DNA from: a virus
Strand: one strand, 5' to 3'
UHGV virus genome: UHGV-0023958
Length of the DNA stretch: 64,000 bases
Shown here: piece after piece, positions 3,001-61,116 of the stretch
Layout: each line of letters opens with the position of its first letter
Position numbering within the stretch: the stretch's first letter is position 1
Translations under genes and position numbers: made by a program
Notes under the pieces: model-generated
What the model was told of the DNA's origin: nothing
The model's input: only the letters and a program-made list of their open reading frames with translations
Databases searched by the model: none

Positions 3001-6000
3001 AGGTTTCAATCTTCAAGCTACTGAATCATCTAAAATTGTTGATAAGCTTACAAAACTCGATGCCGAATACGCGACAACAGCTGGCGATATCGCTAACGCA
3101 TTATCAAGAACGGCTGCTGCCGCAAAAGCAGCCAATCTCGATCTCGATCAAACTGCAGCAATGCTTACTACAATTATTGATATTACGCAGCAAGATGCTG
3201 GTAGCGTTGGTAATGCTTTAAAGACGATTTTGTCAAGATATGGAAATGTTAAAGCTGGCGTATTTGCTGGAATGGCAGAAGATGGGGAAGACGCATCTGA
3301 AAGCATAAACGATGTTGAAAAGGTGCTGAATGCGATTGGTATTCAGATCCGTTCGACTTCAACAGAAATGCGTGGTTTTGATGAAGTCCTCGATGATTTG
3401 GCTGAAAAATGGGATAATTTAAACGATGTCGAACAAAACGCCGTTGCAACTGCTATGGCTGGTGTAAGACAGCGCAACCAATTTTTAGCCTTGATGCAAA
3501 ACTACAACCAATATAAAGAAAGTTTGGAATCTTCTCGTACATCTTCTGGTACGGCAGATGAAAAATATGCTGCGGTTATGGATAGCATTGCTACTTCTAT
3601 GCAAAAAATACAAACTGCGTGGGAAAGTTTTACACAAAAACTTCAAGCGAGTGGATTTGTAAAAACATTCTTTAAGGCAATTGCAGGTGTTGTTGAAAAT
3701 ATTGATAAGATACTTCCAAATATTGTGGCGATGTTGACGGCTATTGCTGGAAAACACCTTCCAACTATAGGAATGAAGGTCCAAGGTTTATTTGGCGGTG
3801 GAAGTCGTATGGGGAAAGGTGTCAGAGCTGCTTTCGGACGAAGTGGATCATTTGAACAAGAAAGTTTAAGAGAACTTGCAGAATACAAAAAAGGACTTGG
3901 CTATAAAGATGAGGAACTTTCTGAAGCAGAAAGAAAAATCCTTGGTTCTGGGCACCAAGAAAATACCGCAGATGATAAAACAGCATCCAATACCGATTAG
4001 ATTAAATCTGATGTTTCTACTATAAAGGCTTATTTACAAAACAAAAAAGCAGGAGGTGCTACCACTCCGAATACTGGAGATGATACAAATCAAAACGTAG
4101 AGGCTGGTGGCAGTCAAAAAGTTTCTAATAAAAAAGGTAAAGCTAAAGGAACAAAATTTTTAAAAAAAGCTAGAATAGCCTCTGGTGTTACGACTGGAAT
4201 AGCATCGGGACTTTCTTCTGGTATGACTGCTAATTATGGTGATTTTACAAGCACTGCTGACAAAATATTTACTGGTGCTGCTTCTGGTATATTTTCTGGT
4301 GTTGGAACCGCTCTTGCTGGTCCTATTGGGGGTATCATAGGCACGGCGTTTGGATAGAAAATCGGTGAGATATTTTATGGACAATTTCACAAAGAAGAAA
4401 TTGCTCGTCGCAAACGTGTTGATGAAGCTAAGAAGCAACTTGAAGCTACTCAAAAGGTAGAATCTGCAATTACCTCCGCCGAAGAATTAATAAGCAAAGA
4501 TAGAAGCGAATGGGGTTCGGAAGAGTATAAGCAAGAAAAAGAAGTAATTGACTAGATGCGACTTGGATTACAAACTTCAAGCACATTAGCAGAAAACTTT
4601 GCAAAACTTTCTGGTAAGCCTACCGATGTTTCTGATTGGCTTCTTAAGTTATCTTCTGATTTAACATAGCTTGATAAAAGCGTTATTGCAAATTATCGTG
4701 CGGCTCAAATTTTGACGGAAGCGCAAGAAACATATAAAGCTGGCGAAGAAGATCGTGCGGCGTTATATGATAAGCTTGGAAGTGCAGAAGCTTCCATGCT
4801 TAATCAAATTCAGAACATAGATTCTGCTTCTTCGGAGTATCTTGAAAAACATAAAGAATATGAGAGCAAATACGGGAGGACAGTTGAATCTGGTATTGCT
4901 TCAATGCAACAAGCGCAAATGCAATTAGATGCGTTTACTGATGCGTTGCACGAAGGATATATGCAAGCCGCATTTTATTCTTCTGGGGTTTCTCAAATGT
5001 CTTCGACGGATATCGCCGGGGCGAGTCTCGATAGAGTTGTTGCCGAGGTCGCTCGTGCTTGGGCGGCAAGTGATGCTACTGCTTTAGTGTTTGCTAATGG
5101 AATGCTTTTGGATAGTGCAAGAAAATAGATTGTAGCGTATTTAAAAACACAATCTGATTTTACGTCATTAACAAAATCTCCTGGTGGAAGTTTCCGAGAA
5201 ATATTAGATGCTAGAGATGATATTGGAGATTATTTAAATAAAACTGGTAATGATTATACCAAATTAAAAAATATAGTCAATCAACAAGATTTTAAGAAAA
5301 TAAGAGAATTTTTTGGATATGATTCTAAGGATACAACAAAAGATTCTTATATTAAAGATATAATTGATAAAATCAATAAAGCTGATCCAACAAATATTGA
5401 ATTGATTGCGCATGGATTAAACATGACTGTTGAAGAAGCAGAAAAACTCAAAGATGTTATAGGAACAATAACCCTTTCTGATATTTTAAACGGAGCGAAC
5501 AAACTTTTAGATAAGTTTGACGAATTAAATACGATTCTTGGAGAGATTAGCGATAATGATATTTTATCTCCAGATACAATGAATAAAATAGTCAAGAATT
5601 TTCCAAATTTATTAAAAGGAACCGATGAAAGTGGAAATGTTACTATATCAAGAGATAACATTATAAGAAATCTTACAAAGTAGATTACAGATCCAAATGG
5701 TACTTACGCAACTGGATATATTGGTAAAGTGGCAACAGGAGCAAAAACCGAATCTAAATACTGGGATTTATTTAAAGATGTTGCTGATTAGTATTTTACC
5801 GGAGATACGCTTAAATAGATAATGAATTATAGCAATTTCGAAGGTGCGGAATCTATAATGATGAGACCGGAGAATAAGTAGGCATTGTAGAGATTTGGTG
5901 AAATAGTTGCGACTTCAACAGGGATTATTGATTAGCAAGAAAGAGCTAGAAATACATTAATTGAAGCGGAAAACAAATCTTTGGAAAAACAAATCGATAA

Positions 6001-7525
6001 TTTACAATCCATTAAAGATTCAATTGGAGATATCAATAAACAAAGAGAAAAAGAGCTTAATTTAATAAAGGCTCGCGATGCGCTTGAAAATGCGAAAAAA
6101 GAAAAGAAGCTTGTTTATCGTGCCGGTATTGGATTTGTTGCTACGTCAGACTCTTCTGCAATATAGGAGGCTCAAAAGAAAGTTGATGATTTGCAAAATC
6201 AACAAACTCAAGAAGATTTACAATATCAAATAGATTAGCTTAATCAACAAAAAGCAATATTAGAGGCGATTAAGAATGATCCCAATATGGAGAGCTTAAA
6301 AAATACTGCGGAAATTATAAAAGATGAATTGATGTAGAAAACGCCAGGTGGTATTCTTGGGCTATTAAAAAATTTAGATCCAGAAACTTTTTCTGATAAT
6401 GTTCGAGACGGCATTGTGAAAAGTATTACAGAAAAAACGCTAGCCGTTGGGCAAGATACATACAGAAACATAAAGTTTTCGTTAGACACTTTGTTATAGG
6501 ATTATAAAGATTTTTATGATACAAAAAATTATGAAGGAAGTGGACAATCTGTTCAATCTATTTTAGAAGATCCGTCAAATATTTATTTTTCTCGCGTTTC
6601 AAATTCAATAAAAGAAAAACAAAGTGCTATAGAAAGTAAGAAAAAAGAGCTAGATAATTTAAAAGAGAAGTATTTTTCTGGCGATAATAAATCGTTATTA
6701 GGAAGTTATGGCGGAGCAATTGAAAATATACAAAATTATTATAAAGAAAAATATGGAACAGATGATTATTAGGATGTGTCAAAGTTAAAATTTAACAAAG
6801 AGGGTATTTTGTTAGATTTAGAAAATGCTTCTGGTGATTATCATGAAAATTATTTTACAATGGTCAAATACACAAATGAGGCGGTATCCGATGATTCTTT
6901 TACCGATAATAAACATCGAAAATATAAAAAATCACCCGGTAAATCTTGGGAAAGCTTGGGTAAATCATGGAACGATATTGTAGAAAATGATTTGTTATAG
7001 CCGGGAGATTTCGTTTTAGTAGATTTAAAAGGAAATAAACTCGCCTATGTTGGTGTTGATAAAAAATTATATTGGGTACAAACTAAAAAGCCGAAAGATT
7101 AGAGTTATGGTGGTTATGGCGATGTTAATGACACAACAAAAGGAAATAACCCCGATATAGATTATTCTAATATGCGAGCCAAAGGTGATTATAATTATCA
7201 AGGTGGCAACGTTCTCATTAACGAACTTGGTACAGAAGCTATTGTAACACCACAGGGTACGCTTACATCACTTCCTTCTCATTCTGGTATTGTTCCTGCC
7301 GATCTCACAAAGAATTTGTTTGCTCTTGGCGAGATTGCTCCAAATCTTATTGCGACTCTTCGTAATCAGATGCCAAATGTTTCTAAATCGAATTCTACTA
7401 GCAATGATAATTCTACGAATATCGGAACTGTTTATGCAACATTTAATGCAGATAGCGGATTTGATATGAACAGATTTATGATCGACTTGCGCTCTGCCGC
7501 TGGCAACACAAGACACAACAACTAA
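2..7525 (+). CDS. Tail tape measure protein, 5' partial, read with about 30 in-frame TAG codons as sense; ends at TAA 7523-7525.
   Basis: Track ORFs 71-442, 686-1162, 2213-2443, 2474-2656, 2675-4000, 4712-5128, 5402-5683, 5981-6166, 6776-7000 and 7172-7525 are all in frame 2. Codon-by-codon walks of 3998-4712 and 5126-5402 found only TAG between them, no TAA or TGA. The 2675-4000 segment has a TP901-type core (GASVDEANSLMTSYNKLAKELG...LKGFNLQ). Confidence 0.75.
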
Positions 7526-10202: not shown

Positions 10203-13200
10203 ATGGCAGTTTTTAAACCGACAAATTGTTCGCCGTATTTAACATCTTTTGATATTACATATTTGAATGAAGGACCAATTTATTTTCAATGTAAAATAGA
10301 TACGTCAAACACAAATATTGACGGATATGCTATAACTGTTTATGATAGTGATAATCATAAAATTTTTCCGCATAATGGAAACGCAGTCGATAATATATCA
10401 TATATCAAAGATCTTCATTATGATACAACGAAGATTGGATCGATTATTTCTGATGATGGAATTTCTGATTTAAACACTGGTTTAAACGGAAGTTATTTAA
10501 AAATTCCTTTTGTTGTAAACAATGGTTAGAATAGTTATCTAACAAACACAACGAGAAAAAATGTTGTTGTGTATAATAAAAAAACAGACGGAAGTTATGA
10601 AATAAAAGATAATTCTGGAAATATCATTAAATTATATAACGGAAATCAGTATAAATGGACAATAACTTTATATTAGCTCGGACAAGACGCTGTTGATAAT
10701 AAGAAATCTAGGCCAGAAGAAATTAAATATTATGATATGACAGTGGCTTCTGGCAAAATTCTTGGATCTACCAATGAAAGAATCCAAAGCTATCCGAGCG
10801 ATCAAATTTATAATGATTACTTTTTACAATTATATAGTGCTCCAGTTGTTAATGTTGGTCCTGATTTTTAGATTACAAAAATTACAGGAGATGTAAAACA
10901 AGTTGGAACGAGGGTTAGAATTAAAGATTACGATTCGTATCTCGGACACATGTATTTACAAACTGGACAAGATGGTTTGTCTGAGAAAAATTTAGATATA
11001 TCAAATGTTTTCCAAGTTTTTAAAATGAGTAATAACCCAGATGATTTGGGCACAAAAGACAAAGTTGATTTTTGCATTAGTCAAAAATACTTTGTGCCAA
11101 AGTATTTCCAAGAATCTAAATCTGATTCATCGGCAGCATATTTATCTCAAACATTTGTTATTGCAAACGTCACTGGTTCAAGTGCCTCTGAAACTTTGGA
11201 AAAAGTGAAAGATGTTTATAATAAGCCGTTTTTTGAAAACACTGAAACTTTGTATGGTTTACCTTCATCTAATCAATATTACTCTAAAATTTTTAGTGGT
11301 TATGACGGAGACAATTCTCCCCCGGTTATATTTGGTTAGTCAAGAGTTTTATTGAATACGGAAAATAATAACAACGAATTAGATGAAAGTAGTGGGGCCG
11401 TAACTGGTACTAAGGATTATGGACCGAATGGAGGTAGTTCTAAGTTTAACGGTATATGGATTCCAAAAACACCAACTGTTGAAAAGATTGCAGAACATTA
11501 GAATGAAGGTAAATACACTGGAACAGATTATAAAATAACAATTCAATGGTATCGTTCTTCTGATGCTGATACATGGGGAGAAATCACAAACAAAGTCGTT
11601 TTAGATACCAACAATTTCAACAGTGATTATGATTCGTTCGCAGGTCAAAATCTTCAAGCATATACTTCTGAGCAAGAAGGAGAGCAAGTTTCAACCGGTA
11701 CTATTAATGATACGCTTATAAAATTTAACAACGAAGAACCTGTTGAAATTTATTCAAATAATTCTTACGAACATAACTATGGATTTATTTATAAAAACAA
11801 CATGGACATAACTGCATGGTTAGCGTCTATAACTGGTGAGACAACGCATGTACTAACTTATACATACATTTGTAAAAACACTTGGAGGGTAACTGGAAAG
11901 CCAAAGTGGCGCGAAGGCGATAATTTTAATGATTGGATTGGAAATCCTATTTATTTTATAGAGAAAGATAATAATATATTTCAAGACAAGCATCAATATC
12001 AAATTTTAGCATATCGTAATCCAAGTAACTCTTACTTACAAGCGGAGGTTAAGTTTAATTTAAATGAACAATATACTACTTATTATAGTGGGAATTATGG
12101 TTTAGATTGTTTTAATCCACCAGAGGAGTGGGAGAAGTGTGAAATACGCGTTGTTTGGAAAAATGATGCCGCAACAGATAAAAACTTAGATCTCCCAGAA
12201 GTTAATGATACAATTCAGTTTTTTATATATGATATAACAACTGGAATTATTAATTTTATTTCTCCGTCTACAGCCGTGTCTGTTGGAGATAAAATATTCA
12301 ATAAAGATAATTCTTCTTCGAATGTTGTGTTGTTAAATAAAACTGTTTGGGCGATTGGACAAGAGCAAGATGTTTCTACATATAAATATAAAAACAATGA
12401 AGGTCGGTTGGTAGACTATAATTATTATCCGATTTTAAACTTCAAAACAAACGATTTATATTCAATTAAAACATTCTTCCGTTCGAGCAGCGAAAATCAA
12501 TTTAGTTTATATGAACGTCCAACTGTCGATTTAGAATTATACGGCGTTTCAGGCGGTGCAAAGATAGAAATTAATGCTGCTGATAAAACATGCAAAACCT
12601 ATGAGAGAAGTATTTTTGCATAGGCTATTTATAATCAAACCAATTTGGTTCAGTGGAGAAATTATCAATGGTTTCTTTACGATGTTCCAAATATTTACGA
12701 AAACGCCGATGCGTATAAAACAGCAGCTGGATCTGCTTTGACAAAATATTTAAATCCGAATGATCTTATTTTGCAATCAGAAGTTGGTTATGATAAAGAG
12801 ATAAAATATACGTTTTATGGTTTGGCAGAAGAACACCATTGGTATATTATATCACTTGTTTTGACAGATCAATACGGAACAATTATTACAAAGAAAATTG
12901 CTGTTTATACTGATTTTACAGTGGAATTAGAACAAGATAAAGATTGGGTTAATTATGGTCTTCGGTGTGATTTAACCGGCGTCGATATGTGGTTTGAAGA
13001 TAAATACGGTTATATATATCCGAATTTGGGTGATAGAAATTATTTGATAGAAACCAACAACAAATATGCAAACAATCCAAATGGCGTTACGTATTCTGAT
13101 AGTGTTATGAATATATCTGATAACTCAGAAGGTGTTTTATATGATAGCGTATATAGCAATGACGGATTAAGTTCTTGGAATTCCCCTTCTAAACAAAATT

Positions 13201-14339
13201 TAACTTTTGATCAGAATAAAGGTATCGAATTTACGACGAGGGTTACAATAGACAGTTATCAATACTCGGCAGAATTTCTAAACGTTGTTATTAATACAGA
13301 TGGCGGAAACACAAAGAACTTGGTTTTGAAACCAGAAGATTTATATATAAGTTCTAATGATTGGCCAGAAGGTTATAAAGTTGGTTTCCCGAATTATGAG
13401 TGCTATAAGATTGGTAATTATGCTATCGGGGAAAATCCGAACGTATATGTTTATGGGAATGTAACAACCGATTTGTTCCCTAATTCTGATTCTTATAATT
13501 CTTGTATTAAATATAATAATTACTATATATCTTATATTCCTTCGAACGTAGTTCCCCTTGGAGCTAATAAACCTTCTATAAATATTCCAAATTCTTGGTA
13601 TTTTATCAATTATGATGAAGAAAATAGTGTTAAAGATATAATAAGTGATAAACCGATAAAGATAAATAAGATGATTTATGCTTTAGATGATCCCGATGGG
13701 CTATAGAACAAAGATGTATTTTATAATTTGCCAATATTTATAAGAAACGATTTATCTTTAAGCGGGAAAACAATAGAAAATTTACCTGATGGAACTAAGG
13801 TTTATAGTCTTTGGATGGATAAAAACGATGAGATAATTATACCAACAATAGTTGCTATAAATGAATCTGCTAATACTTTTTACTATTGTTATAGAAAAGT
13901 CAATAATCATCAAGAGGATATATCAGATAATATCTGGGAAGATACAAAAGAAAACGGAGAAGATAATATTTGGGAAGACGAAATTACAGTAGAAGATACT
14001 CAATCTGACCATTTAAAAAATAAAGATGGCTCGTTGAATACGATTAGAAATCGTTTGTATGGCAAAGTTTTATATTTTTATGTTCAGTGGAGCGGAAAAG
14101 AAAACGACGATATCACATACGGCATTGTTGGAAATGTATCACAAAGAGTAATAGATGTTGATTCTGAATTGTCGTTGACTTCTGTTAATCCAGTTGAGAA
14201 CAGGGTAATTACAACTGCTTTAAATTCAAAATTAGATACAACAACGTTATCTGATTAGAACACATTTGGTATATTTAAATGTTATACAGATAAATTTGGA
14301 ATATTAACTTTTGTTACTGGGGAGGGTGAAAATGGCTAA
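10203..14339 (+). CDS. Large tail / host-specificity protein of about 1378 codons with at least 8 in-frame TAG codons.
   Basis: ORFs 10203-10529, 10950-11339, 11802-12623, 12645-13706 and 13728-14258 are all in frame 0 with only TAG between them. The TAG at 14256 is followed in frame by TAA at 14337-14339, overlapping the next ATG as ATGGCTAA. Confidence 0.55.
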
Positions 14340-17200: not shown

Positions 17201-17210
17201 GGAGGGACGT

Positions 17211-26748: not shown

Positions 26749-26823
26749 TGGGGAATAGCATAACGGTAGTGCGGTGCTCTCTAAAAGCACTCTGTGTCGG
26801 TTCGAGCCCGACTTCCCCCGCCA
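26749..26823 (+). tRNA. Amber suppressor tRNA, anticodon CUA, with Gln-like features U1, G10 and G73.
   Basis: Cloverleaf: acceptor tggggaa/ttccccc; D-stem gcat/gtgc; anticodon stem gtgct/agcac with loop cTCTAaa; T-arm gtcgg-ttcgagc-ccgac; encoded CCA. Confidence 0.75.
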
Positions 26824-33353: not shown

Positions 33354-34456
33354 TGGGAAAAAGAACTTGGACACAGGAAGAAATAGATATATTAATCAAT
33401 GATTATAAAAACGATGTATTAGTTAGAGATATTTCTAAAAAATTAAATAAAACCATTGGATCTGTTAAATCTAAAATTATTTCATTAGAACTTCCAAAAT
33501 TATATATAAAAAAGAATAATTCAAATTTTAAAGCAGTTTATCAAGATTACGATTGGTGTTATGAAAGATATATTAATAGAAATATGACTATGGAACAAAT
33601 GGCAGAAGAAGCCAATTGTAGTTTACGAGTTATAAAGAAATGGTGTTCTGAAAAACATAGATTGAATTTATTTACTTATAGTGAAAATAAAAAATTAACA
33701 GAGTTGCAGAAACAATTAGTGATGTTTTCGTTATTAGGCGATGGTCATATAACTAATAATAATGAACGACCGATATATATAGAAAGCCACGCGGAAAATC
33801 AAAAAGAATACTTGTTTTGGAAATATAATATTTTAAAAGACGTATGTTCTAATACACCAAAATATTACCATTCAGAAATAAGACATTTTAAAAATTGTGA
33901 TAGTTTATGTCAACCAGGTTATCGGTTTAATACGAGAATAATAGATGATTTAAAAGATATAAAGAATATGTCATCTTCTGAAATTATTATGAATATTAAC
34001 GAATTCGGCTTATCGATTTTTTTATTAGACGATGGAGACAGGACAAAATGTAATTGGCGGCTGTGTATGGCTGAATACACAAAAGAAGAAAAGCAATTAT
34101 TTATTGATGTTTGCAAAGAAAAGTTTGATTTGTTACCACATATTATTAATTCCGATAATAGATATTTATTATTTAACTCAGAAGATAGTAGAAAAATAGA
34201 TATCATTATTTTGAGGAATATCCCAAATAATCTTGATATTGTTCAATATAAAATAGTTAAGAATAAGACTACTAAATCAATAATTTGTAATTTTGTGAAT
34301 TACAATAATGAAAAAATTGGTCTTGCAAGATTTTGTAGGACATATAAATTAAATTATGAAAAATGTAAAAAGTATTTGGAAACAAATAATTTATCTGAAA
34401 TTGATGGAGAATTATTATTTGCTTTAAAGGAGAATAATTATGAAACAATATGCTAA
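33353..34456 (+). CDS. Free-standing LAGLIDADG homing endonuclease.
   Basis: Two motifs, FSLLGDGHI and IFLLDDGDR. Confidence 0.5.
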   Translation: MGKRTWTQEEIDILINDYKNDVLVRDISKKLNKTIGSVKSKIISLELPKLYIKKNNSNFKAVYQDYDWCYERYINRNMTMEQMAEEANCSLRVIKKWCSEKHRLNLFTYSENKKLTELQKQLVMFSLLGDGHITNNNERPIYIESHAENQKEYLFWKYNILKDVCSNTPKYYHSEIRHFKNCDSLCQPGYRFNTRIIDDLKDIKNMSSSEIIMNINEFGLSIFLLDDGDRTKCNWRLCMAEYTKEEKQLFIDVCKEKFDLLPHIINSDNRYLLFNSEDSRKIDIIILRNIPNNLDIVQYKIVKNKTTKSIICNFVNYNNEKIGLARFCRTYKLNYEKCKKYLETNNLSEIDGELLFALKENNYETIC

Positions 34457-37400
34457 TTATCATAAACACGATATCATATCAAATATATTTGTTCCAGATA
34501 CGCACGTTAAATGCGAATCATATTTAAAAAGAATTAAAGAACTTGGGTATGATTGTTATTGGACAACGAATCATGGTTCTGGCGGCGATATATTTGAAGC
34601 AAGAGATTTATGTGATAAATACGGAATCAAATGTTTCTTTGGCGTTGAAGGATATATTGTTCTAAATCCTTTGGAAAAAGATAATAGAAATTATCATATT
34701 ATAATTATTCCAAAAACAAATGAAGCAAGAAAGAAAGTAAATTATATTACAAGCCATGCTTCCGAAGAAGGATTTTATTATAAACCAAGAATCTTCTTGG
34801 AAGATTTATTAAAATTAAATAAAGATGATATTTATTTAACTTCTGCTTGTGTTGCTGGATTGATGCACGATGAAGATAGCATTGAGTTATTATTGAAACC
34901 ATTAGTCGAACATTTTGGTCAAAACTTTTTTCTTGAAGTTCAAAATCATCAAGATGAATTTCAAAAAGAAATCAATAGAAAATGTTTGCAATTTTCTAAA
35001 CAATACGGATTGAAATTAATTGCTGCTAATGATAGTCATTATATTTATCCAGAAGATTCCAAGGATAGATTAGAATTCTTGAAAGGGAAAGGTATTAATT
35101 ATGGTGATGAAGATACTTATGTCCTTGATTATCCAGATTATGATACCATGTTTTCAAGATTTCAAAAACAAGGAATTTTAACAGATAAAGAAATCGAAGA
35201 AGCAATTGATAACACAAGAATATTTGAAAATTGCGAAGAGATTTATTTAGATAAAGAAATTAAAATGCCGAGCGCATATTTAAATTTAAATTCAGATGAA
35301 AAGATTAAAGAATTAAAAAAACATATCAATAAAAAATTTGCAGAAATTCGAGAAGAAGAACACATAGAGGGCGAACAACTTAAAAAATATATTGAAGGTA
35401 TTCGGCAAGAAATGCAAACAATTATTGATACAAAAGAAATTAATACAGCAGATTATTTCTTATTGAATGAAAAAATAGTTGATTTGGCAGTTCATAAATA
35501 CAACGGTGTTTTAACAAGAACTGGTCGTGGATCGTGCGGTGGTTTTTACATTAATCGAATTCTTGGAATGACACAAATTGACAGATTTACATCCCCAATT
35601 AAATTATATCCAGAAAGATTTATTAGTACTGCACGGTTGCTCGAAAACAGGGCAATGCCAGATATCGACTATAATGTTGCTTCGCAAGAACCATTTATTA
35701 AAGCATCTAGAGAAGTTCTTGGGGAACATTGTGCTTATCCAATGGTGGCTTATGGAACAATGCAAATTGGTGAAGCGTTTAGAAATGTTTGTAGATCACA
35801 CGGTCTTGAATTTGATGAATTTAATGATGTTGCTAAAAACATAGATAATTATTTAGAAGATCCTAAATGGAAACAATATATAGAAGAAGCTAAAAAATAT
35901 GTTGATGTAGTGGTTTCTGCTTCCGTCCATCCTTGCGCGTTCGCTCTCTCAAACAATGATTTGAGATATGAATATGGTATTGTAAAAATTGGAAATGCTC
36001 TATGTGTTATGATAACATCTAGCGAAGCAGATTATTGGAAAATACTTAAAGATGATTTTCTTATTGTTTCAATTTGGGGAATTATTGCGGATACATTTAA
36101 ATTAATTGGAAAACCGATTATAACCGTAAATCAATTATTAAATGATTTGGATGATCGCGTTTGGGACTTATATGCAAATGGAATTACTTGCACATTAAAT
36201 CAAGTCGATAGTGATTACGCAACGTCTTTAATGAAGAAGTATAAAGTTCGTTCAGTTGGTGAATTAGCGCAGTTTACAGCAGCGGTTCGCCCATCATTTG
36301 ATGCTTGGCGTGATGCGTTTATTTACAGAAAGCCTTTTACGACTGGAAGTAAATATCTTGACGATGTTCTGTCGGAAACAAGAGGAATGATTACATTTCA
36401 AGAAACATTGATGACTTATTTCCAATGGCTTGGAATTACACCTGCAGAATCAATTGGTTTGATTAAAAAAATTAGTAAGAAAAAAATTCATCCAGAAGAC
36501 TTTAAAAATCTTGAAGATAGACTTAAAGAACAATGGATTAAAAATACTGGAAGCATTGATAAATTTGACGATACTTGGCAAATGGTTCAAGGTTGTATGT
36601 CTTATGGTTTCGCTGCGCCACATGCTCTTGCAACGGCAATCGATTCTCTGTATGGAGCTTGGCTTAAAGTTCATTATCCTTTGGAATATTATTCTATTGT
36701 GTTTAGATATTACGAAGGTGATATGGAAAGAACTAATAAGCTTACAGAAGAATTGAAGTATTTTAATATATCATTAAAAAATATTCAATTCGGACATTCG
36801 GCTGGCTCTTATAAAATAAACAAAGAGGAAAATAGTATTTATAAAGGACTTGGCTCAATTAAATATTGCAATGTTGAAGTCGGTGATAAACTTTATGAAT
36901 TATCGCAATCGAAACGATACAATTCTTTCGTAGAAATTCTTAAAGATTTCCCTGGCGATTCGAGACAATTAGATATTTTGATTAAACTTGGTTATTTTTC
37001 TGATTTTGGAAGCATTGGAAAGCTTTTGAAAATTGTAGAGGTTTATAATCAATATGGTTCAAAGACAATAATCAAAAAGGATCAATGTGCGATTAACAAA
37101 GATATTATGTTGCAGTATGCAACGGAAACAGAAAAGCAATATCGTTTGAAAGATAAAGATGGTTTTATAAATTATCTTTTGGAAAATATTACTTATAAAG
37201 AATATCCAATTACGCAAAGAATTAAAGATGAAAAAGAATATCTTGGTTATGTTTCGTTGAAAATCGAGGGAAAATCGAGCACTTGGTACGTAACCGATAT
37301 AAACACAAAGTATTCGCCGAAAATATCTTTGTATAACGTTGGGACTGGCGAAGAAAAAGTTGTTAAAATTGAGAAAAGAAAATATCAGTTAGCTCCATTT

Positions 37401-37523
37401 GATAAAGATGTTTGTTTGAGAGCAACTTTTGAAACGAAGAATAAATGTAAAAAAGATGAAAACGGAGATTGGGTGAAACTCGAAGAAAAAGAAGAGTGGA
37501 TTAAATATTATTCCGTTGTATAA
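34440..37523 (+). CDS. dnaE: DNA polymerase III alpha (DnaE-like) with an N-terminal PHP domain.
   Basis: HKHD PHP motif; GRGSCGGFYINRILGMTQID palm motif; about 1027 aa. Confidence 0.75.
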   Translation: MKQYANYHKHDIISNIFVPDTHVKCESYLKRIKELGYDCYWTTNHGSGGDIFEARDLCDKYGIKCFFGVEGYIVLNPLEKDNRNYHIIIIPKTNEARKKVNYITSHASEEGFYYKPRIFLEDLLKLNKDDIYLTSACVAGLMHDEDSIELLLKPLVEHFGQNFFLEVQNHQDEFQKEINRKCLQFSKQYGLKLIAANDSHYIYPEDSKDRLEFLKGKGINYGDEDTYVLDYPDYDTMFSRFQKQGILTDKEIEEAIDNTRIFENCEEIYLDKEIKMPSAYLNLNSDEKIKELKKHINKKFAEIREEEHIEGEQLKKYIEGIRQEMQTIIDTKEINTADYFLLNEKIVDLAVHKYNGVLTRTGRGSCGGFYINRILGMTQIDRFTSPIKLYPERFISTARLLENRAMPDIDYNVASQEPFIKASREVLGEHCAYPMVAYGTMQIGEAFRNVCRSHGLEFDEFNDVAKNIDNYLEDPKWKQYIEEAKKYVDVVVSASVHPCAFALSNNDLRYEYGIVKIGNALCVMITSSEADYWKILKDDFLIVSIWGIIADTFKLIGKPIITVNQLLNDLDDRVWDLYANGITCTLNQVDSDYATSLMKKYKVRSVGELAQFTAAVRPSFDAWRDAFIYRKPFTTGSKYLDDVLSETRGMITFQETLMTYFQWLGITPAESIGLIKKISKKKIHPEDFKNLEDRLKEQWIKNTGSIDKFDDTWQMVQGCMSYGFAAPHALATAIDSLYGAWLKVHYPLEYYSIVFRYYEGDMERTNKLTEELKYFNISLKNIQFGHSAGSYKINKEENSIYKGLGSIKYCNVEVGDKLYELSQSKRYNSFVEILKDFPGDSRQLDILIKLGYFSDFGSIGKLLKIVEVYNQYGSKTIIKKDQCAINKDIMLQYATETEKQYRLKDKDGFINYLLENITYKEYPITQRIKDEKEYLGYVSLKIEGKSSTWYVTDINTKYSPKISLYNVGTGEEKVVKIEKRKYQLAPFDKDVCLRATFETKNKCKKDENGDWVKLEEKEEWIKYYSVV

Positions 37524-38771: not shown

Positions 38772-38801
38772 ATATCTATCTAAAAGTAAGAGGTGGGTTT
38801 T

Positions 38802-41800
38802 ATGCAATATGAAATTGAAGATGCCGATGTTGGATTTGAAGGGTATGTAACGAAAATCCGTTTCCCGAAGGCGCAAAAAGACTATAATGGTTGGTGTGCT
38901 TTTGATTTCCAAGTGGATTCTGTATTTGTCGGTGAAATTCGAAAAAGCACTATTAAAAACGGTATTATACATTTATGCGGATACGCGCCGCTTGCCAAAG
39001 AAAATATAAGATATCGTGTATATGCAAAGTATGAAATAAGCCAAAAATATGGACACACGTATCAGGTATGCTATATGAGTTCTATTGTATCTTTAGAAAC
39101 AGAAGAAGATGTGAGGAATTTCCTTCTTACTATTTTACCACAAAAGACAGTTGAGAACTTTATGGAGTATACCAAAGATCCGATCGGTCTTATTAAATCT
39201 GGCGATATTAGCGAGATGTGTAATATAAAGGGTGTTGGGTTTACAAGAGCCCAAGACATCGTTGCAAAATTTAGAGGTATAGATGACCGCGCCGAAGTAT
39301 ATGCGATTTTCACAAAGCTTGGTTTGACAAAAAGATTGGCGGACGATTTGATTGAGCAATATAAATCTGCTGATAGCTTGATGGCAGATATTAACAAAAA
39401 TCCGTATATTTTAATTGAAAAATGCGATGGAGTTGGTTGGGCAAAAGCGGATAATTTGGCGTTAAAAATGGGTATAGCAGAAGATTCGGAATTCAGAATT
39501 AAAGCTTATGTAAACTATTTTTTAACAAAAATAGCAGAGACAGAAGGTCATACTTGGGTTACATTACAAAATTTACTTTCGAGTATTCTTGGTCTTTCTA
39601 AAATTATTACTAAAGATAGGGCGAAAATTATTCTTCGCGAATTGGTTGACAAAGAAAAATTACACTACGAAGAACAAACAAAAAGAATTGGTTTAAATAA
39701 GTATTATAGGCTTGAAAAACGAATTTGCGATGAACTTGTTCGTCTTCGAGATGCCGAAGTTTTCCCCGTAAAGCACATTGACGAAACAATCGCAGATTGT
39801 GAAAAAATGGTTGGTTTTGAGTATACTCAGGAACAAAAAGACGCTATTTATAAAATATTTAAAAACAACGTATTTCTTCTTACCGCAAACGCTGGTTGTG
39901 TAGATAAAGATACTGAATTTTTTAATGGTGAAAAATGGAAAAAGATTTCAGATTATAAAAGCGGTGAAAGGGTGTTGCAGTATAACGAAGATGGTAGCGC
40001 GAGTTTGACAAAGCCGCTGATGTATTTCAAAAAACCTTGCGATAAATTATATCATTTTGAAACAAAATATGGTATCAATCAAACGGTTTGTGAAGAACAC
40101 GATGTGCTTTACTGGAAGAGTGAAAACGTCCATGATTCCTGCAAAGTTAAAGACATAAAAGATAAACAGGAACTATATCGTTCTGGTTTTTCTGGAAAAA
40201 TTAAAGCTGGTTTTAACTATAGTGGAAACGGAATCAACTTAAGTGATGAAGAAATTCGTGTTATGTGTGCGGTTATTTGCGACGGTTCTTTTGATTCTTC
40301 TGTTGAGCTTAAAACAAATTCACATTCTTATAGATATTGTAGATTTCATATTAAAAAAGACAGAAAAAAAGAACGTATAAGAAAATTATTTTCAGATGCA
40401 AAAATAGAATTCAAAGAACATAATTCTATTATGAAAGGTTATACCGACTTTTATATCAAAGCACCGATGAGAACAAAGATGTTTGATGAATTTTGGTATC
40501 ACTGCACAAATAAACAATTACAGGTTATATGCGATGAAATTCTTTATTGGGACGGCAGTATTACGAAAACTAAAAATAATAAAGAGAAAAAGAAGTTTTC
40601 AACCACTTTAAAAGAAAATGCTGACTTTGTTCAGTTTGCATTTACGGCTTGTGGGTATCGCGCGACAATCAAAGTTGACGATAGAAAGGGGGAGAAATAT
40701 TTCACTGCTGGAAAACAATATGTTAGGAAAAGCGTTTGTTATGAAGTATTTATTTCAGATAACGTATTCATTGGTTTTGGAAATGATAGCAGGGTTTGTC
40801 ATAAAAAGACAAAGATCGAAGAAGTGAAGTCAGAAGACGGATATAAATATTGTTTCATGGTCGAGTCAACAATGCTCGTTTTGCGCAGGAATAATTGTAT
40901 TTTTGTTACGCATAACTGCGGAAAAACAACAATTATGTATCCAGTAGCTCGCATACTTCGAAGAAATGGGTATAATTTTGCTTCTTGTGCACTATCTGGA
41001 AAAGCGAGTTTAAACCTTTCTGAAACTATCGGAGAGGAAGGAAAAACAATTCATCGACTTTTAGAGTTCAACGGGTTTACGACACAATTTGACAGAGATG
41101 TGAACAATCCGCTGGAACAAAATGTTGTGATTTTAGACGAAGTAAGTATGGTTGGCGGCGATTTGTTTTTACACTTATTGAGAGCTATGAAAACTGGAAC
41201 AAAACTAATAATGATAGGTGATCCAGGGCAGCTCGAATCAATTGGTTTGTGTAATTTAATTAGCGATATCAAAGGTTCTGGAAGAATTGCACAAGCATAT
41301 TTGACGAAGATTTTCAGACAAGCACAAAAATCTGGCATCATTACGGATTCTTTAAAAGTGTATCACCAAGAACAAATATTGCCGAGCAACGGTTTTATAG
41401 GCGATGAAGTTCACGGAGAGTTAAAAGATTTTGAGATAATTTCAAAAAACACTACGCAAGACTGTTTAAATGAGATTGTTAAAAAGTTTAAAAAATTTTA
41501 TTACGAAGATAAAATTCCGATTGACGATATTATTATTGCTGTTGCAAAGAGGGCGATTGGTCCGCTTTCCGCGCGGTGTGTAAATCAGATTATTCAAAAC
41601 CTTTTGGAACTCCCGAAAGAAAGAACACTTAAACATAAATATAATGATCAAGTTCTTTATGAAATAACGTTTCATGTAGGCGATAAAGTTCTTGTTACAA
41701 AAAACAATTATAAAGCAGAAACAATTGAAGGTATAAATTATCCGATATTCAATGGCAATATTGGCACCGTATATGATATTTGCGAAGATACGTTGTTGAT

Positions 41801-42092
41801 GAAAATAGACGATAAAATTATGCTTTATGGTCCAGGCGAAATAGGAGATTTGCAGCTCGGATATGCGGTTACAACGCATAAACTCCAAGGAACTGGTTAT
41901 CCTTATGTAATTGCGGTTTGCGACCAGGGTTCTTTTAATCTTTTGAGCAAGGAGCATCTTTACACGGAGATTACGCGTGCTAAAAAGTATTGTACGCTTA
42001 TAGGAACGCCGAAGGCAATTACGACCGCAATCAAAACCACTCGTGTTGTAAAAAAGCAAACTTATCTCGGAGAAATGCTCGCAGCCACTTAA
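38802..42092 (+). CDS. RecD-like SF1 helicase interrupted by an intein.
   Basis: HhH-type N-terminus; split Walker A ANAG|C...HN|CGKTT; C-terminal motif VTTHKLQG. Confidence 0.7.
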   Translation: MQYEIEDADVGFEGYVTKIRFPKAQKDYNGWCAFDFQVDSVFVGEIRKSTIKNGIIHLCGYAPLAKENIRYRVYAKYEISQKYGHTYQVCYMSSIVSLETEEDVRNFLLTILPQKTVENFMEYTKDPIGLIKSGDISEMCNIKGVGFTRAQDIVAKFRGIDDRAEVYAIFTKLGLTKRLADDLIEQYKSADSLMADINKNPYILIEKCDGVGWAKADNLALKMGIAEDSEFRIKAYVNYFLTKIAETEGHTWVTLQNLLSSILGLSKIITKDRAKIILRELVDKEKLHYEEQTKRIGLNKYYRLEKRICDELVRLRDAEVFPVKHIDETIADCEKMVGFEYTQEQKDAIYKIFKNNVFLLTANAGCVDKDTEFFNGEKWKKISDYKSGERVLQYNEDGSASLTKPLMYFKKPCDKLYHFETKYGINQTVCEEHDVLYWKSENVHDSCKVKDIKDKQELYRSGFSGKIKAGFNYSGNGINLSDEEIRVMCAVICDGSFDSSVELKTNSHSYRYCRFHIKKDRKKERIRKLFSDAKIEFKEHNSIMKGYTDFYIKAPMRTKMFDEFWYHCTNKQLQVICDEILYWDGSITKTKNNKEKKKFSTTLKENADFVQFAFTACGYRATIKVDDRKGEKYFTAGKQYVRKSVCYEVFISDNVFIGFGNDSRVCHKKTKIEEVKSEDGYKYCFMVESTMLVLRRNNCIFVTHNCGKTTIMYPVARILRRNGYNFASCALSGKASLNLSETIGEEGKTIHRLLEFNGFTTQFDRDVNNPLEQNVVILDEVSMVGGDLFLHLLRAMKTGTKLIMIGDPGQLESIGLCNLISDIKGSGRIAQAYLTKIFRQAQKSGIITDSLKVYHQEQILPSNGFIGDEVHGELKDFEIISKNTTQDCLNEIVKKFKKFYYEDKIPIDDIIIAVAKRAIGPLSARCVNQIIQNLLELPKERTLKHKYNDQVLYEITFHVGDKVLVTKNNYKAETIEGINYPIFNGNIGTVYDICEDTLLMKIDDKIMLYGPGEIGDLQLGYAVTTHKLQGTGYPYVIAVCDQGSFNLLSKEHLYTEITRAKKYCTLIGTPKAITTAIKTTRVVKKQTYLGEMLAAT
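39897..40916 (+). mobile_element. Intein of 340 aa with a LAGLIDADG-type endonuclease domain (VICDGSF), inserted in the helicase P-loop.
   Basis: Begins with Cys after NAG; ends HN followed by +1 Cys. Excision would restore ANAGCGKTT. Confidence 0.6.
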
Positions 42093-50816: not shown

Positions 50817-51162
50817 GTGTTTGCTGACAAAAGAAGAATTTTGCAAATACATTAATTTTATCAAAGCTCGTATTGAAGCAGAAGATAAGATCAATGATTT
50901 GTTCACCGAAGAGTTTACCGATAGCATTTTTATGCCTTATGGAAAATGTATTGATAAAATTGTCAGTTTATTATCGAAAATAATGCGTTGTAACGCCATA
51001 GACACGTGGGGAACGACCGATATCGACTATTTCATCTACGAGCTTGACTTCGGCAAGAAATGGCCAGGATACAGTGCTTACGATGAACATGGTGCGCCGA
51101 TTCCAATGAGGACACCAGAAGAACTTTATGACTATTTGATTAAAGAAAACTTTGAGGATTGA
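50800..51162 (+). CDS. Hypothetical protein.
   Basis: ORF track. Confidence 0.4.
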   Translation: MPKKSECLLTKEEFCKYINFIKARIEAEDKINDLFTEEFTDSIFMPYGKCIDKIVSLLSKIMRCNAIDTWGTTDIDYFIYELDFGKKWPGYSAYDEHGAPIPMRTPEELYDYLIKENFED

Positions 51163-51163
51163 T

Positions 51164-57201: not shown

Positions 57202-57209
57202 AAAATTTT

Positions 57210-57259
57210 AAAGTCAACTATGAAAATTAGTTGACTTTTTATTTTTTTTATAGTATAAT
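57210..57259 (+). promoter_or_regulatory. 11-bp perfect hairpin aaagtcaacta / tagttgacttt with loop tgaaaat and a T-tract. The -35 TTGACT sits in the 3' arm, with TTGACT-N17-TATAAT.
   Basis: Seen in the sequence. Confidence 0.55.
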
Positions 57260-57291
57260 ATTATTGTAAATTCAAACAAGGAGAAACGAAT

Positions 57292-58170: not shown

Positions 58171-58877
58171 ATAGATATTTTGATTATGAATTTGATGGAG
58201 ATACTGAATCTCAAGCAGACGAAATTGTGCACGAAGCAAAAGATAAGCTCGTAGATTTGATTTATGAAAATGTAAAATCAGAAATTGAAGAAGATAAAAA
58301 AAATTATGTAAGGGCCAAAGAAAGAGCCGATGAGCTGCAGAAAGAGTGTTATGAAAAAAGAGAAAAAATCAATGCTCTTGAAATTGAATTAAAGAAAGTA
58401 AAAGAAGAGCTTGAAAGAAGTGATAAGTTAATTCCCAAAACACCTTTTGCACTTGGTGATGAGGTTTGGATTCCTTATAGAAAGTATAGTGATAAAGGTG
58501 AGGTGAAATGCCCTATGTGTAATGGCGAAGGGTATATTACCACACCAACCTATATTTATGGAACGCTTAAATGTATCTGCCCACATTGTAATAATGAGTG
58601 GGGAAAAACAAAAGCGGAATATGATAAATACTCCGTGGAGCGTAGATATATTAAATCAATTAATATTTTTACAGATAAAGCAAAAGAGACCAGATTTGAC
58701 TACGGAACCATCGAAGATAAAAAGAATCTTGATGTCAAAGACTATCATTATGTAACTACCGTAACACATGTTTATGCAACAAGAGAAGAGGCGTTGGCGA
58801 AAGCGCAGGAGTGGGAAAACGAAAGCAAAAAGAAAGCAGAAGAAAAGATTTTTGGAGAAAATAAGTCAACTACCTAA
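58161..58877 (+). CDS. Coiled-coil / zinc-ribbon protein with CPMCNGEG and CPHCNNE.
   Basis: ORF track. Confidence 0.4.
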   Translation: MELNRYFDYEFDGDTESQADEIVHEAKDKLVDLIYENVKSEIEEDKKNYVRAKERADELQKECYEKREKINALEIELKKVKEELERSDKLIPKTPFALGDEVWIPYRKYSDKGEVKCPMCNGEGYITTPTYIYGTLKCICPHCNNEWGKTKAEYDKYSVERRYIKSINIFTDKAKETRFDYGTIEDKKNLDVKDYHYVTTVTHVYATREEALAKAQEWENESKKKAEEKIFGENKSTT

Positions 58878-59099
58878 TCCCTGAGTGGATGTGGGCTTTG
58901 TTCCCATTAGTTGATCAGACTAAGCGTTAAGCTACGTTATCAAAGAATATACAGGCACCGTAGGATGTATTCTCCAGTCTTACGCTCTGCGGTATGTGAT
59001 TAAACAGTTCTGATGGGTAGGAACAGTGTTGCATACGAAAACCTTTGAATAACATTGTCGTGGAGTAACCACTCTAACATATAGGAGGCTATAAAAGCA
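58878..59099 (+). ncRNA. Candidate omega-RNA scaffold for the downstream IscB.
   Basis: About 220 nt with no ORF and higher GC than flanks, immediately 5' of iscB; several local stems such as cgtagga...tcttacg. Confidence 0.4.
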
Positions 59100-60329
59100 A
59101 TGGTATATGTATTAAATAAACAAGGTGAGCCAATAATGCCTTGTAAAGAAGCAAAAGCAAGGAAATTGTTAAAACAAAACAAAGCAAAAATAGCAAAGTA
59201 TGAGCTATTTACAATTCAATTACTATTCGATTGTGAAAATCAAACGCAAGAAGTAAATCTCGGAATTGATGCAGGGAGCAAACATATAGGTGTTTCTGCA
59301 ACCACAGAAAAACAAGTTTTATACGAAGCTAATGTTGAGTTGAGAAATGATATTGTTGACAAATTATCTTCTCGTCGTGAAGCTCGCAGGACTCGTAGGA
59401 ATAGATTGAGATATAGACCTGCAAGGTTTAATAATAGAATTAAATCAAAACATAAAGGCTGGTTAGCACCAAGTGTTGAACAAAAGATAAATACGCATAT
59501 TCAAGTTATAAAACACTTATACGAGATTTTACCGATAACAAAACTTGTTATTGAAACTGCTCAATTTGATATTCAAAAAATCAACAATCCTGAAATATCT
59601 GGAGCAGAATATCAACAAGGTGAGCAATTAGGATTTTGGAATGTAAGAGAATATGTTTTATTTCGCGATAATCACGAATGTCAATATTGTCACGGGAAGT
59701 CAAAAGATGTTGTATTAAATGTGCACCATATTAAAAGTCGAAAAATAGGCGGCAATGCACCAAATAACTTGATCACTTTATGTGAAACTTGCCATAAAGC
59801 TTATCATAGTGGCGAAATTAAACTAAATCTCAAACGTGGTAAGAGCTATCGAGATGCAACATTTATGTGGGTTATGCGTAAAACATTATTGAATAGGTTG
59901 CGTAAATTATATACAAATGTTTACGAAACGTATGGTTATATAACTAAAAATGCTCGTAGCGAGAATAATTTACCAAAAGAACATTACATAGATGCTCGGT
60001 GTATAAGCGGCAATTCAAAAGCAAAACCGTTAGATTATTACATTTATCAGAAATGTGTTAGAAAACAGAACAGGCAAATTCATAAAAACAATTTCTTAAA
60101 AGGTAGATACAAAAAGAATAACCAACTAAATGGAAATGTTTTTGGATTTGAATTATTCGATACTGTAAAATATAAGAATAAACAATATTTTGTTTTTGGT
60201 AAACGCAAGTCTGGGTTTTTAGATGTAAGAAATCTAGACGGCGAAAAGGTAAACAATGGTTCAATAAGTTATAAAAAACTTAAAAGAATTAGATATAATT
60301 CAACAAAATTAACGGAAAGGAGGCGGTAA
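59100..60329 (+). CDS. iscB: IscB-like RNA-guided nuclease, OMEGA class, with PLMP, RuvC-I, arginine-rich bridge helix, RuvC-II, HNH and RuvC-III.
   Basis: GEPIMPC...FTIQLLFD (PLMP); LGIDAGSKHIGVS; RREARRTRRNRLRYRPARF; LVIETAQFD; CQYCHG...NVHHIKSR...CETCHKAYH; EHYIDA. RBS aggagg. Confidence 0.75.
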   Translation: MVYVLNKQGEPIMPCKEAKARKLLKQNKAKIAKYELFTIQLLFDCENQTQEVNLGIDAGSKHIGVSATTEKQVLYEANVELRNDIVDKLSSRREARRTRRNRLRYRPARFNNRIKSKHKGWLAPSVEQKINTHIQVIKHLYEILPITKLVIETAQFDIQKINNPEISGAEYQQGEQLGFWNVREYVLFRDNHECQYCHGKSKDVVLNVHHIKSRKIGGNAPNNLITLCETCHKAYHSGEIKLNLKRGKSYRDATFMWVMRKTLLNRLRKLYTNVYETYGYITKNARSENNLPKEHYIDARCISGNSKAKPLDYYIYQKCVRKQNRQIHKNNFLKGRYKKNNQLNGNVFGFELFDTVKYKNKQYFVFGKRKSGFLDVRNLDGEKVNNGSISYKKLKRIRYNSTKLTERRR

Positions 60330-60376
60330 TTCATCCGCGCACATAAATGGAACGCGGTTGATTTACCAAATAGACA

Positions 60377-60649
60377 ATGAAAAAAGTTTTGTTAATTGTA
60401 ATAGGATTTTTAAGCGGCGCATTTCTTTGTGGATGTGCGAGTGTGTCAAGAGCTACTAAATCTTGGAGTTCCGACATGAACGGTGGTCTTGAACGCATCA
60501 TAAATGTCTATACGCTTGATGGAAAGTTAATTGCTACCTATGAAGGAAAGGTTGATATTGACGATAATTCTAATGGTAGCATCATGTTCGATCTTAATGG
60601 GAAAAGATATGTATATTATAATGCTATTATTGAAGTGATTGAAAAATAA
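60377..60649 (+). CDS. Small lipoprotein with lipobox LCGC.
   Basis: MKKVLLIVIGFLSGAFLCGCAS. Confidence 0.45.
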   Translation: MKKVLLIVIGFLSGAFLCGCASVSRATKSWSSDMNGGLERIINVYTLDGKLIATYEGKVDIDDNSNGSIMFDLNGKRYVYYNAIIEVIEK

Positions 60650-60664
60650 TTTAAAAAAATTTCA

Positions 60665-60712
60665 AAAAGTCAGCTAATTTTAGTTGACTTTTTCTTCTTT
60701 TTATTATATAAT
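60665..60712 (+). promoter_or_regulatory. Hairpin aaaagtcagcta / tagttgactttt plus a T-tract. The -35 TTGACT is in the 3' arm, with TTGACT-N17-TATAAT.
   Basis: Seen in the sequence; one G-U pair. Confidence 0.5.
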
Positions 60713-60748
60713 ATACATGTAAAAAATCAATGAGAGGTGTATAGTAAA

Positions 60749-61114
60749 ATGGAAAAAGAGTTTAAGCTTGAATTAAAGAAGAAACAGAACTATAATAACA
60801 TGTTTTACAGATACAGTTATGAAACCTGTAAAATTTGGTTTAGTCAAGAACAAACAACTGGAAATATTTATAGAATAAATATTGTAGATGAACAATATCC
60901 AGAGGTAGATTACTATGTAGATGATACAGAAGATAGATTTTACCCTTTACAAATTAGATTAGATTTTCCACGACTGTTTATTAAAAATGATTCTAATTTT
61001 GAATCTGCTAAGAAAAAATTACAGGATTGTTGTTTAAGAAGACATGCTATTGAAGACTTTCTACTTTCTAGTGAGCACTACAAACTTTGGTTAGAAAAAC
61101 ACGGAGAAATTTAA
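60749..61114 (+). CDS. Hypothetical protein.
   Basis: RBS gagaggtg. Confidence 0.4.
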   Translation: MEKEFKLELKKKQNYNNMFYRYSYETCKIWFSQEQTTGNIYRINIVDEQYPEVDYYVDDTEDRFYPLQIRLDFPRLFIKNDSNFESAKKKLQDCCLRRHAIEDFLLSSEHYKLWLEKHGEI

Positions 61115-61116
61115 TT

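Follow-up and report, generated by a model that had tools for sequence, protein, structure and literature searches.

An IscB–omega RNA element with a flank-derived guide in a tailed phage: a probable RNA-guided homing nuclease

The stretch of the virus genome UHGV-0023958 analyzed here (64,000 nt, "the window") is part of a ~160-kb metagenomic scaffold of a tailed phage and carries a mobile element of 1,512 bp with an intact gene for the nuclease IscB and, directly upstream of it, a full-length omega RNA. We consider it probable (roughly 0.75) that the element is an OMEGA unit (obligate mobile element-guided activity) that acts as an RNA-guided homing nuclease between co-infecting phages. The guide segment of the omega RNA is the left flank of the insertion, and a sequence resembling a target-adjacent motif (TAM) makes up the right flank; the two lie 1.5 kb apart in the carrier and are adjacent only in unoccupied genomes, of which one matches the guide perfectly.

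RESULTS

The open reading frame (ORF) 59100–60329 is an intact IscB. It matches the whole NCBIfam model NF040563 (guided_IscB, the equivalog "RNA-guided endonuclease IscB") over residues 2 to 302 with 369.6 bits against a cut-off of 175, and Pfam matches place RRXRR at residues 2 to 174 and HNH at residues 194 to 237 (E = 1e−9). An earlier note, made from the sequence alone, had read the full IscB architecture in this ORF, and every motif it listed is present and conserved in an alignment of 59 homologues (37 to 56% identity), on which conservation was judged. The PLMP motif is GEPIMPC (PIMP being residues 11 to 14, with P14 invariant). RuvC-I contains D57 in LGIDAG, which aligns with the Asp of LGIDPG in OgeuIscB and is at least 90% conserved, and the Arg-rich bridge helix (R96 to R113) has conserved arginines at R96, R99, R100, R104, R106, and R109. 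RuvC-II contains the invariant E152 in LVIETAQFD. The HNH domain, which sits between RuvC-II and RuvC-III inside the split RuvC fold, has C194/C197, H209-H210, and C228/C231, with C194/C197, H210, and C228/C231 conserved to at least 90%, as is each of H295 and D298 in the RuvC-III motif EHYIDA.

The best PDB matches of the protein are solved IscB chains (OgeuIscB 7utn/7xht), with an E value of 1e−44 in phmmer and 3e−92 when a profile of the 59 sequences was used. A loss of catalytic residues on closer alignment, which the earlier note had named as a ground for doubt, was not found: all RuvC and HNH residues are present in comparison with solved IscB structures and line up with those of OgeuIscB. 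Structure prediction required the 59-sequence alignment, from which AlphaFold (AF2) gave a model with a predicted local distance difference test score (pLDDT) of 90.7 and a predicted TM-score (pTM) of 0.86; the single-sequence prediction was unusable (pLDDT of 35). The top Foldseek match of the model is OgeuIscB with omega RNA and DNA (8csz_D; E = 2e−29, TMq 0.78), followed by other IscB, IsrB, and Cas9d structures. Sequence searches align the protein to solved IscBs only to about residue 340 and do not reach the C-terminal ~70 residues, where the model shows a beta-rich domain. The match to OgeuIscB is one of whole chains and lends tentative support to a possible TAM-interacting C-terminal domain. 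With 409 amino acids, the protein is too short for a REC lobe. A CRISPR-associated (type II Cas9) system was considered and rejected, given this length, small phage ORFs as neighbors, and no repeat array between 55 and 64 kb.

The segment upstream of iscB is a full-length omega RNA. Rfam family RF02033 (HEARO) matches positions 58865 to 59072 of the plus strand with 121.7 bits against a gathering score of 83 (E = 6e−26), and the match covers model positions 1 to 211 of 211. HEARO RNA was later shown to be the omega RNA of IscB. The covariance model thereby bears out the omega RNA that the earlier note had suspected in an ORF-poor segment of higher G+C content (43% versus 33% for the window), but not its start at 58878: the scaffold begins at 58865 and shares sequence with the four final codons and the stop of the gene upstream. 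RNAalifold predicted 73 pairs on an alignment of 11 copies (A1), 10 of which show compensatory double changes, all within the variable 5′ hairpins; there is hardly any variation in the core, although the neighboring iscB genes are near synonymous saturation. The last conserved hairpin, with the Shine-Dalgarno sequence of iscB in its loop, corresponds to columns 232 to 245 of this alignment. In related loci, a full-length HEARO match stands directly upstream of an iscB homologue or remnant in 16 of 16 cases. A search of IMG/VR with a 14-nt pattern of the core returned mostly chance matches, the real ones being the known loci and two mini elements described below.

The extent of the element can be read from ten related contigs that lack it, seven from IMG/VR (L003 to L009) and three from metagenomes (L206 to L208). 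In all ten, the alignment with the window breaks off after 58864 and continues at 60376/60377 from one and the same base of the relative, with a single A at the junction that can be assigned to either side. The mobile unit is 58865–60376, which runs past the iscB stop codon and does not agree with the 58878–60340 of the earlier note. It contains the omega RNA, iscB, and a hairpin-bearing end of 47 nt, and nothing else. Judged by the ten empty sites, the insertion is precise and without target-site duplication or terminal inverted repeats, and on the left it begins exactly where the omega RNA scaffold does. The empty-site junction reads ...TTTTTGGAGAAAA[C/G/A/T]AA|ATGAAAAAAG. In the empty-site phages, the upstream gene ends in ...FGENK and a TGA that shares bases with the start codon ATG of the gene that follows; the window version of this gene takes its final residues, STT, and its stop codon from the element. 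The IMG/VR homologues of the upstream gene are on phage contigs of 98 to 148 kb.

In IS605-family elements with iscB, the omega RNA is placed at the right end (RE) and the TAM lies 5′ of the left end (LE), as stated by Meers et al. (2023, PMC10055086). In the window copy, RE and the 5′ stem-loops of the omega RNA are one and the same (fold z −1.4). At LE, CCGCG (60335–60339) pairs with CGCGG (60353–60357); the DNA fold of this hairpin (60335–60357) has −7.8 kcal/mol and is weak (z −2.2), sister copies being stronger (z down to −3.5). A hairpin and spacer of matching layout are present at LE in L012, L013, L016, L059, L146, and L210. The transposase domain Y1_Tnp (PF01797) was found neither beside the element nor in the ORFs scanned in the 64-kb window (at least 75 aa on the plus strand and at least 140 aa on the minus strand), and the empty sites show that omega RNA and iscB were all that was inserted, in agreement with the "solo" IscB without adjacent TnpA of the earlier note. 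Since the element encodes only iscB and no TnpA, it is filed as non-autonomous; by its content, mode of insertion, and flanking motif, 58865–60376 is classified as a non-autonomous IS200/IS605-type (ISC/OMEGA) element.

Because element and scaffold start together, the phage sequence immediately to the left of the element is the guide; the guide length of 16 nt is assumed by analogy with characterized IscBs. In L003 to L009 and L206 to L208, the sequence left of the empty site is homologous to the guide segment. On the other side, the right flank reads ATGAA. Its reverse complement, TTCAT, is the TAM that Meers et al. (PMC10055086) measured for the IscB of Geobacillus stearothermophilus (GstIscB; 5′-TTCAT-3′, 5′ of LE). 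The flank ATGAAA also agrees with NWRRNA, given as the TAM of OgeuIscB in PMC12660989. From these flanks, ATGRA (TYCAT) is predicted as the TAM of the window IscB. After its guide match, the carrier has the scaffold sequence GTCAAC, which is no TAM of the ATGAA type, and any other match to the guide in the 64-kb window has at least three mismatches. An unoccupied allele that matches the guide perfectly exists in nature: in L207, which is 89 to 99% identical to the window, the last 26 nt before the junction are identical and are followed by ATGAAA. The features of the locus are collected in Table 1.

Table 1. Coordinates of the element, its parts, and flanking features in the window
Feature	Position	Strand	Description
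Mobile element	58865..60376	+	1,512 bp; bounded by ten empty-site contigs; RE at 58865, LE at 60376
Guide segment of omega RNA	58849..58864	+	TTTTTGGAGAAAATAA; just outside the element, 3′ end of upstream gene
Omega RNA scaffold	58865..59099	+	HEARO match 58865–59072 plus conserved 3′ hairpins as far as the iscB start codon
Shine-Dalgarno sequence of iscB	59083..59088	+	AGGAGG, read from sequence; in loop of last conserved hairpin
iscB	59100..60329	+	409 aa, uninterrupted ORF; PLMP, split RuvC, bridge helix, HNH, C-terminal beta-rich domain
Left end (LE)	60330..60376	+	47 nt 3′ of iscB stop; subterminal hairpin
TAM-side flank	60377..60382	+	ATGAAA, right flank of insertion; reverse complement TTTCAT, containing TTCAT
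Upstream phage gene	58161..58877	+	238 aa; relatives match residues 1–235 only
Downstream lipoprotein-like gene	60377–60649	+	90 aa; start codon within TAM-side flank ATGAAA
Sigma-70-like promoter	57231..57259	+	TTGACT-17-TATAAT; consensus scan
Terminator-like hairpin	60664–60693	+	next one after the promoter

IscB homologues of 79 to 93% identity are present in related phage contigs at at least ten different sites, the guide being in each case the left flank of the copy in question. Where the end is intact and the right flank usable (about eight sites), this flank reads ATG[A/G][A/C]N. At the site of the copy in L011, six empty relatives have the guide match followed by ATGAAA, perfectly so in L007, and two have ACGAAA; the empty allele of the L016 site likewise has ACGAA at the TAM position. 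The L011 copy has lost the LE hairpin and 33 nt of flank with iscB intact, and L014 has similarly lost the LE hairpin while keeping iscB and the omega RNA; truncated ends are seen in several copies. Two derivatives are reduced to little more than the RNA. A mini element of 328 bp (L059:527–854) is made up of the omega RNA, the first nine codons of iscB, and the left end with its hairpin; it is inserted precisely before ATGGAA (in comparison with L017) and shares its contig with a full-length copy (that of L013). The other (L143:~12743–13008, minus strand) has the same parts and occupies a site that is held by a full-length copy in L013. In both, the deletion end points lie at AAGG microhomology.

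Between copies, the ratio of nonsynonymous to synonymous substitution rates (dN/dS) of iscB is 0.05 to 0.15 at a dS of 0.5 to 2, and it is 0.06 to 0.10 for the window copy against all others; these low values indicate purifying selection on the IscB protein over a long time. One in-frame stop each is present in three copies, L013, L015, and L017 (TGA at codon 144, TAA at codon 276, and TAA at codon 377, respectively), which could reflect recent pseudogenization or assembly errors. A rescue of these stops by recoding of TAG was rejected, as the stops are TGA or TAA. More than 120 IscB protein clusters fall within at least 78% identity, many of them on contigs of 50 to 215 kb, and this clade is found almost solely on phage-sized contigs. 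Among 185,579 reference genomes, the only close match is on a 62-kb phage-like contig binned with a metagenome-assembled genome (MAG) of Bacteroidaceae, the next ones, at 60% identity, being in a Selenomonadaceae MAG from buffalo reticulum. Megablast of the region from 57 to 62 kb against 50,697 deposited phage genomes gave no match; the relatives come from IMG/VR and metagenomes.

Some details of the copies are recorded here as observations. To the left of the element, 13 of 17 nt are alike between L146 (3757–3772) and the window (58848–58864), although the upstream proteins are unrelated except for the last nine residues, (I/L)FGEN(K/E)STT; the sites of L146 and L013 are apparently orthologous. 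Such a likeness occurred in about 1 of 780 pairs of a null set of ribosome-binding-site contexts, but several pairs were compared. AAGGAGG is present near the end of iscB in all copies. The TAA stop codon of the window iscB is CAA in several copies (among L011, L012, L014, and L016), so that the ORF extends, in L016 through LE. The end of the ORF in L014 and L016 is a TGA overlapping with the start codon ATG of the phage gene downstream (ATGA). This arrangement suggests translational coupling of iscB and the downstream gene, which could offset the separation of that gene from its own Shine-Dalgarno sequence. The window gene 3′ of the element has no obvious Shine-Dalgarno sequence.

All genes of the window are on the plus strand, as are those called in the flanks of the sister loci that we examined, and the element is co-oriented with the surrounding genes, which are small phage ORFs. 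The promoter and the terminator-like hairpin of Table 1 enclose the element together with the downstream gene and three small genes, and this promoter probably drives a unit containing the guide, the omega RNA, and iscB. A consensus scan of the plus strand from 58000 to the omega RNA revealed no promoter-like site; the guide-bearing RNA would therefore most likely arise by read-through and processing. The placement of the element in an early region, as the earlier note had it, is plausible in view of the sigma-70-like promoter unit and of the standard code of this region, where iscB and its neighbors have no in-frame TAG, versus the TAG-recoded structural genes.

Elsewhere, the window encodes tail tape-measure proteins, NrdD, a DnaB-like helicase, Pol III alpha, a RecD2-like protein, PD-(D/E)XK proteins, PhoH, ClpP, an RNA ligase, a Thg1-like enzyme, and a LAGLIDADG protein. 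The last of these (ORF 33353–34453; LAGLIDADG_2, E = 1.7e−13) lies just upstream of the largest ORFs of the replication module (34440..37523 and 38793..42092) and fits the remark in the earlier note on further homing-type elements in this phage. In the structural genes (window positions 71 to 19000), TAG is apparently a sense codon: read-through fuses 71..7525 into a protein of 2,484 aa with 32 in-frame TAGs and Pfam matches to tape-measure and minor tail proteins, and 10203..14339 into one of 1,378 aa with 8 TAGs, and a suppressor tRNA with the anticodon CTA is located at 26749..26823. A cassette of terminator hairpin and promoter (TTGACT-17-TATAAT) is repeated at 57185–57270 and 60638–60723 (79 to 84% identical), with weaker copies in other parts of the source contig, and is suggestive of a regulatory module placed between small gene cassettes. 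Three regions (46057–47627, 51152–53279, and 61087–61899) contain a tRNA cluster (Tyr, Gln, Asn, Gly, and Val) together with an RNA ligase, a KTI12/AAA_33-type kinase, and a Thg1-like tRNA-His guanylyltransferase, which look like a toolkit for tRNA repair and maintenance.

DISCUSSION

Our data point toward an element that would spread between phages by RNA-guided cleavage. This proposal starts from the protein and RNA families, the boundaries, the relation of guide, flank, and TAM, the natural targets, and the purifying selection, and from these we infer expression, cleavage, and homing. In our model, transcription of the upstream phage operon enters the element and would yield an omega RNA with a phage-derived 5′ guide of ~16 nt. 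The complex of IscB and omega RNA would recognize a guide match that is directly followed by the TAM ATGAA (TTCAT on the other strand). As guide match and TAM exist together only where the element is absent, and as the carrier has GTCAAC instead, the carrier would be spared. HNH and RuvC would cut an unoccupied sister genome, which may be that of a co-infecting relative or a copy from which TnpA has excised the element, and recombinational repair from the occupied genome would then copy the element into the cut one. In a lytic phage, a co-infecting relative would be the most available unoccupied allele. The position of the guide in the left flank and of a TAM-like ATGAA in the right one, adjacent only in empty relatives, also lends indirect support to the homing or anti-competitor role suggested in the earlier note.

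A wider version of the model is tentative, and we would hold it at somewhat less than even odds: the IscB lineage may have diversified within one clade of large gut or rumen phages, spreading among them in co-infection as an RNA-guided gene drive that manages without TnpA, with mini elements borrowing IscB in trans and thereby contributing additional guides. The variants in or near the TAM of most empty sites would then be drive-resistant alleles, and copies without the end that TnpA recognizes would persist.

Several observations weigh against homing as the function of the element. Nine of the ten empty sites mismatch the guide at position −3 from the TAM, a codon third position that is T in the window and C, G, or A in those nine, and some have further mismatches beyond it; most of the sampled relatives may therefore be poor targets. 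The −3 variants could reflect resistance to cutting or plain drift among ten related sequences. The combination of guide and TAM amounts to a generic ribosome-binding site with a start codon and occurs as an exact 21-nt match in nine IMG/VR contigs, none of which is related to the window phage; owing to this generic nature, we rejected the nine matches as evidence of targeting. Among the contigs compared, the insertion site of the window is occupied in one phage lineage only, and a sliding identity profile around the site revealed no clear co-conversion tract, the profile being mosaic. The LE hairpin of the window copy is degenerate relative to its relatives (z −2.2), and the in-frame stops of L013, L015, and L017 suggest that decay occurs in the family.

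The marks of TnpA transposition are evident in the precise insertion without target duplication, the TTCAT-type motif, and the hairpin ends, and with at least ten occupied sites some transposition must have happened; full-length copies and mini elements at so many sites are more than homing alone yields. The element could, then, be an ordinary IS605-type passenger whose nuclease only restores it from a sister copy ("restorative homing") after excision by a TnpA of host or phage origin acting in trans, without spread from phage to phage; the phage would be just another replicon in which it settled. According to Meers et al. (PMC10055086), ~98% of iscB genes have no nearby tnpA. We nevertheless regard a purely restorative role as unlikely. 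No TnpA was found among the window ORFs scanned, L011 and L014 retain an intact iscB and omega RNA without the LE hairpin that TnpA requires, and the clade of at least 78% identity is almost solely on phage-sized contigs. The two roles are, moreover, mutually compatible.

Strong purifying selection and the long residence of the lineage in one phage clade would also be expected if the complex had been domesticated as a weapon that mainly destroys competing related phages, or other DNA bearing the target, to the benefit of the carrier. The target is present in sister phages and, as the 21-nt match, in unrelated viral contigs, and there is a precedent for interference competition by a phage homing endonuclease (PMC11620839), the intron endonuclease of PhiPA3 reportedly working in this manner. 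We consider such a primary function rather improbable, because the guide is the insertion flank, the default for a selfish element, and shows no sign of selection against a particular competitor, and because most of the sampled relatives have a mismatch near the TAM. That ORF and RNA are a recognizable but inactive relic is very improbable: the single stops in three relatives, the truncated ends of several copies, and the degenerate LE hairpin of the window copy would fit, but the window ORF is uninterrupted over 409 aa with all catalytic residues, preceded by a full-length omega RNA and a Shine-Dalgarno sequence, and its dN/dS is 0.06 to 0.10. Hardly credible at all is a free-standing, protein-guided HNH homing endonuclease, although this is what database labels imply: PHROGs 119 and 2214 call the homologues "HNH endonuclease," as do GenBank entries for homologues in Clostridium, Ralstonia, and Staphylococcus phages. 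In this protein, HNH is an insert in a split RuvC with the PLMP motif and bridge helix of IscB, and each of the copies examined has a full-length HEARO/omega RNA immediately upstream.

The reading that we prefer, homing guided by RNA from one co-infecting phage to another, can be compared with several known systems. Among the closest is ISGst5 of G. stearothermophilus (Meers et al. 2023, PMC10055086), also an IS605-family element with a HEARO-like omega RNA upstream of iscB at RE, a guide from the flank, and, 5′ of LE, the TAM TTCAT, of which the window flank ATGAA is the reverse complement; even the catalytic numbering is similar (D58/H209/H210 in GstIscB versus D57/H209/H210 in the window protein). 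As reported in that study, the ISGst5 IscB cuts the empty donor joint, and recombination restores the element. However, ISGst5 resides in a bacterial chromosome, whereas the window element is in the genome of a lytic-type phage with no cognate TnpA found in the 64-kb window, and its likely targets are genomes of co-infecting sister phages. OgeuIscB (PDB 7utn, 7xht, and 8csz) shares domain order, fold, and the Rfam family of its omega RNA, and its TAM NWRRNA fits ATGAAA; it is larger (496 versus 409 aa), with ~24% identity in the structural alignment.

With the free-standing and intron-borne homing endonucleases of phages (Seg and Mob of T4 and gp210 of PhiPA3), the element shares the position of a nuclease gene between conserved phage genes. 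These enzymes cut the empty allele of a co-infecting relative, into which the gene is then copied by recombination, and resistant target variants are expected. In T4 Seg and Mob and PhiPA3 gp210, the protein recognizes the target and nearby polymorphisms distinguish self from non-self; in the window element, a guide RNA and a short TAM would serve for recognition, and presence or absence of the insertion itself would make the distinction. A TnpB-driven IS605 gene drive in plasmids, termed "non-restorative homing" (Mears et al. 2025, cited in PMC13565253), is alike in that an OMEGA nuclease spreads its element to homologous empty replicons without TnpA; that system was built on laboratory plasmids, whereas the present case concerns IscB in natural phage populations and comparative evidence. 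A 2026 review lists non-restorative homing in co-infecting phages as theoretical (PMC13565253).

IscB with its omega RNA is already known, as are its part in the maintenance of IS605 elements and the presence of IscB homologues in phages. IscB-like ORFs of 30 to 54% identity are present in Clostridium phage c-st, Clostridioides pCD1602_4, Ralstonia phages, and Staphylococcus Silviavirus, and HEARO RNA has been noted in Silviavirus genomes (PMC13346280). These deposited homologues are annotated as "HNH endonuclease" or hypothetical, and the papers that we consulted describe no boundaries, guides, or targets for them. The contribution of the present locus is a clear-cut natural example from a virus, with exact boundaries, a flank-derived guide, and a TAM on the opposite side. 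It pairs a perfectly matching empty allele with many empty alleles that are changed near or in the TAM, and the related copies at many sites include end-truncated and RNA-only derivatives. This population evidence makes RNA-guided homing from phage to phage directly testable, and the locus supplies for this purpose a compact IscB of 409 aa with a predicted TAM of ATGRA (TYCAT). Phage genes annotated as "HNH endonuclease" can, as in this case, conceal guide-RNA nucleases.

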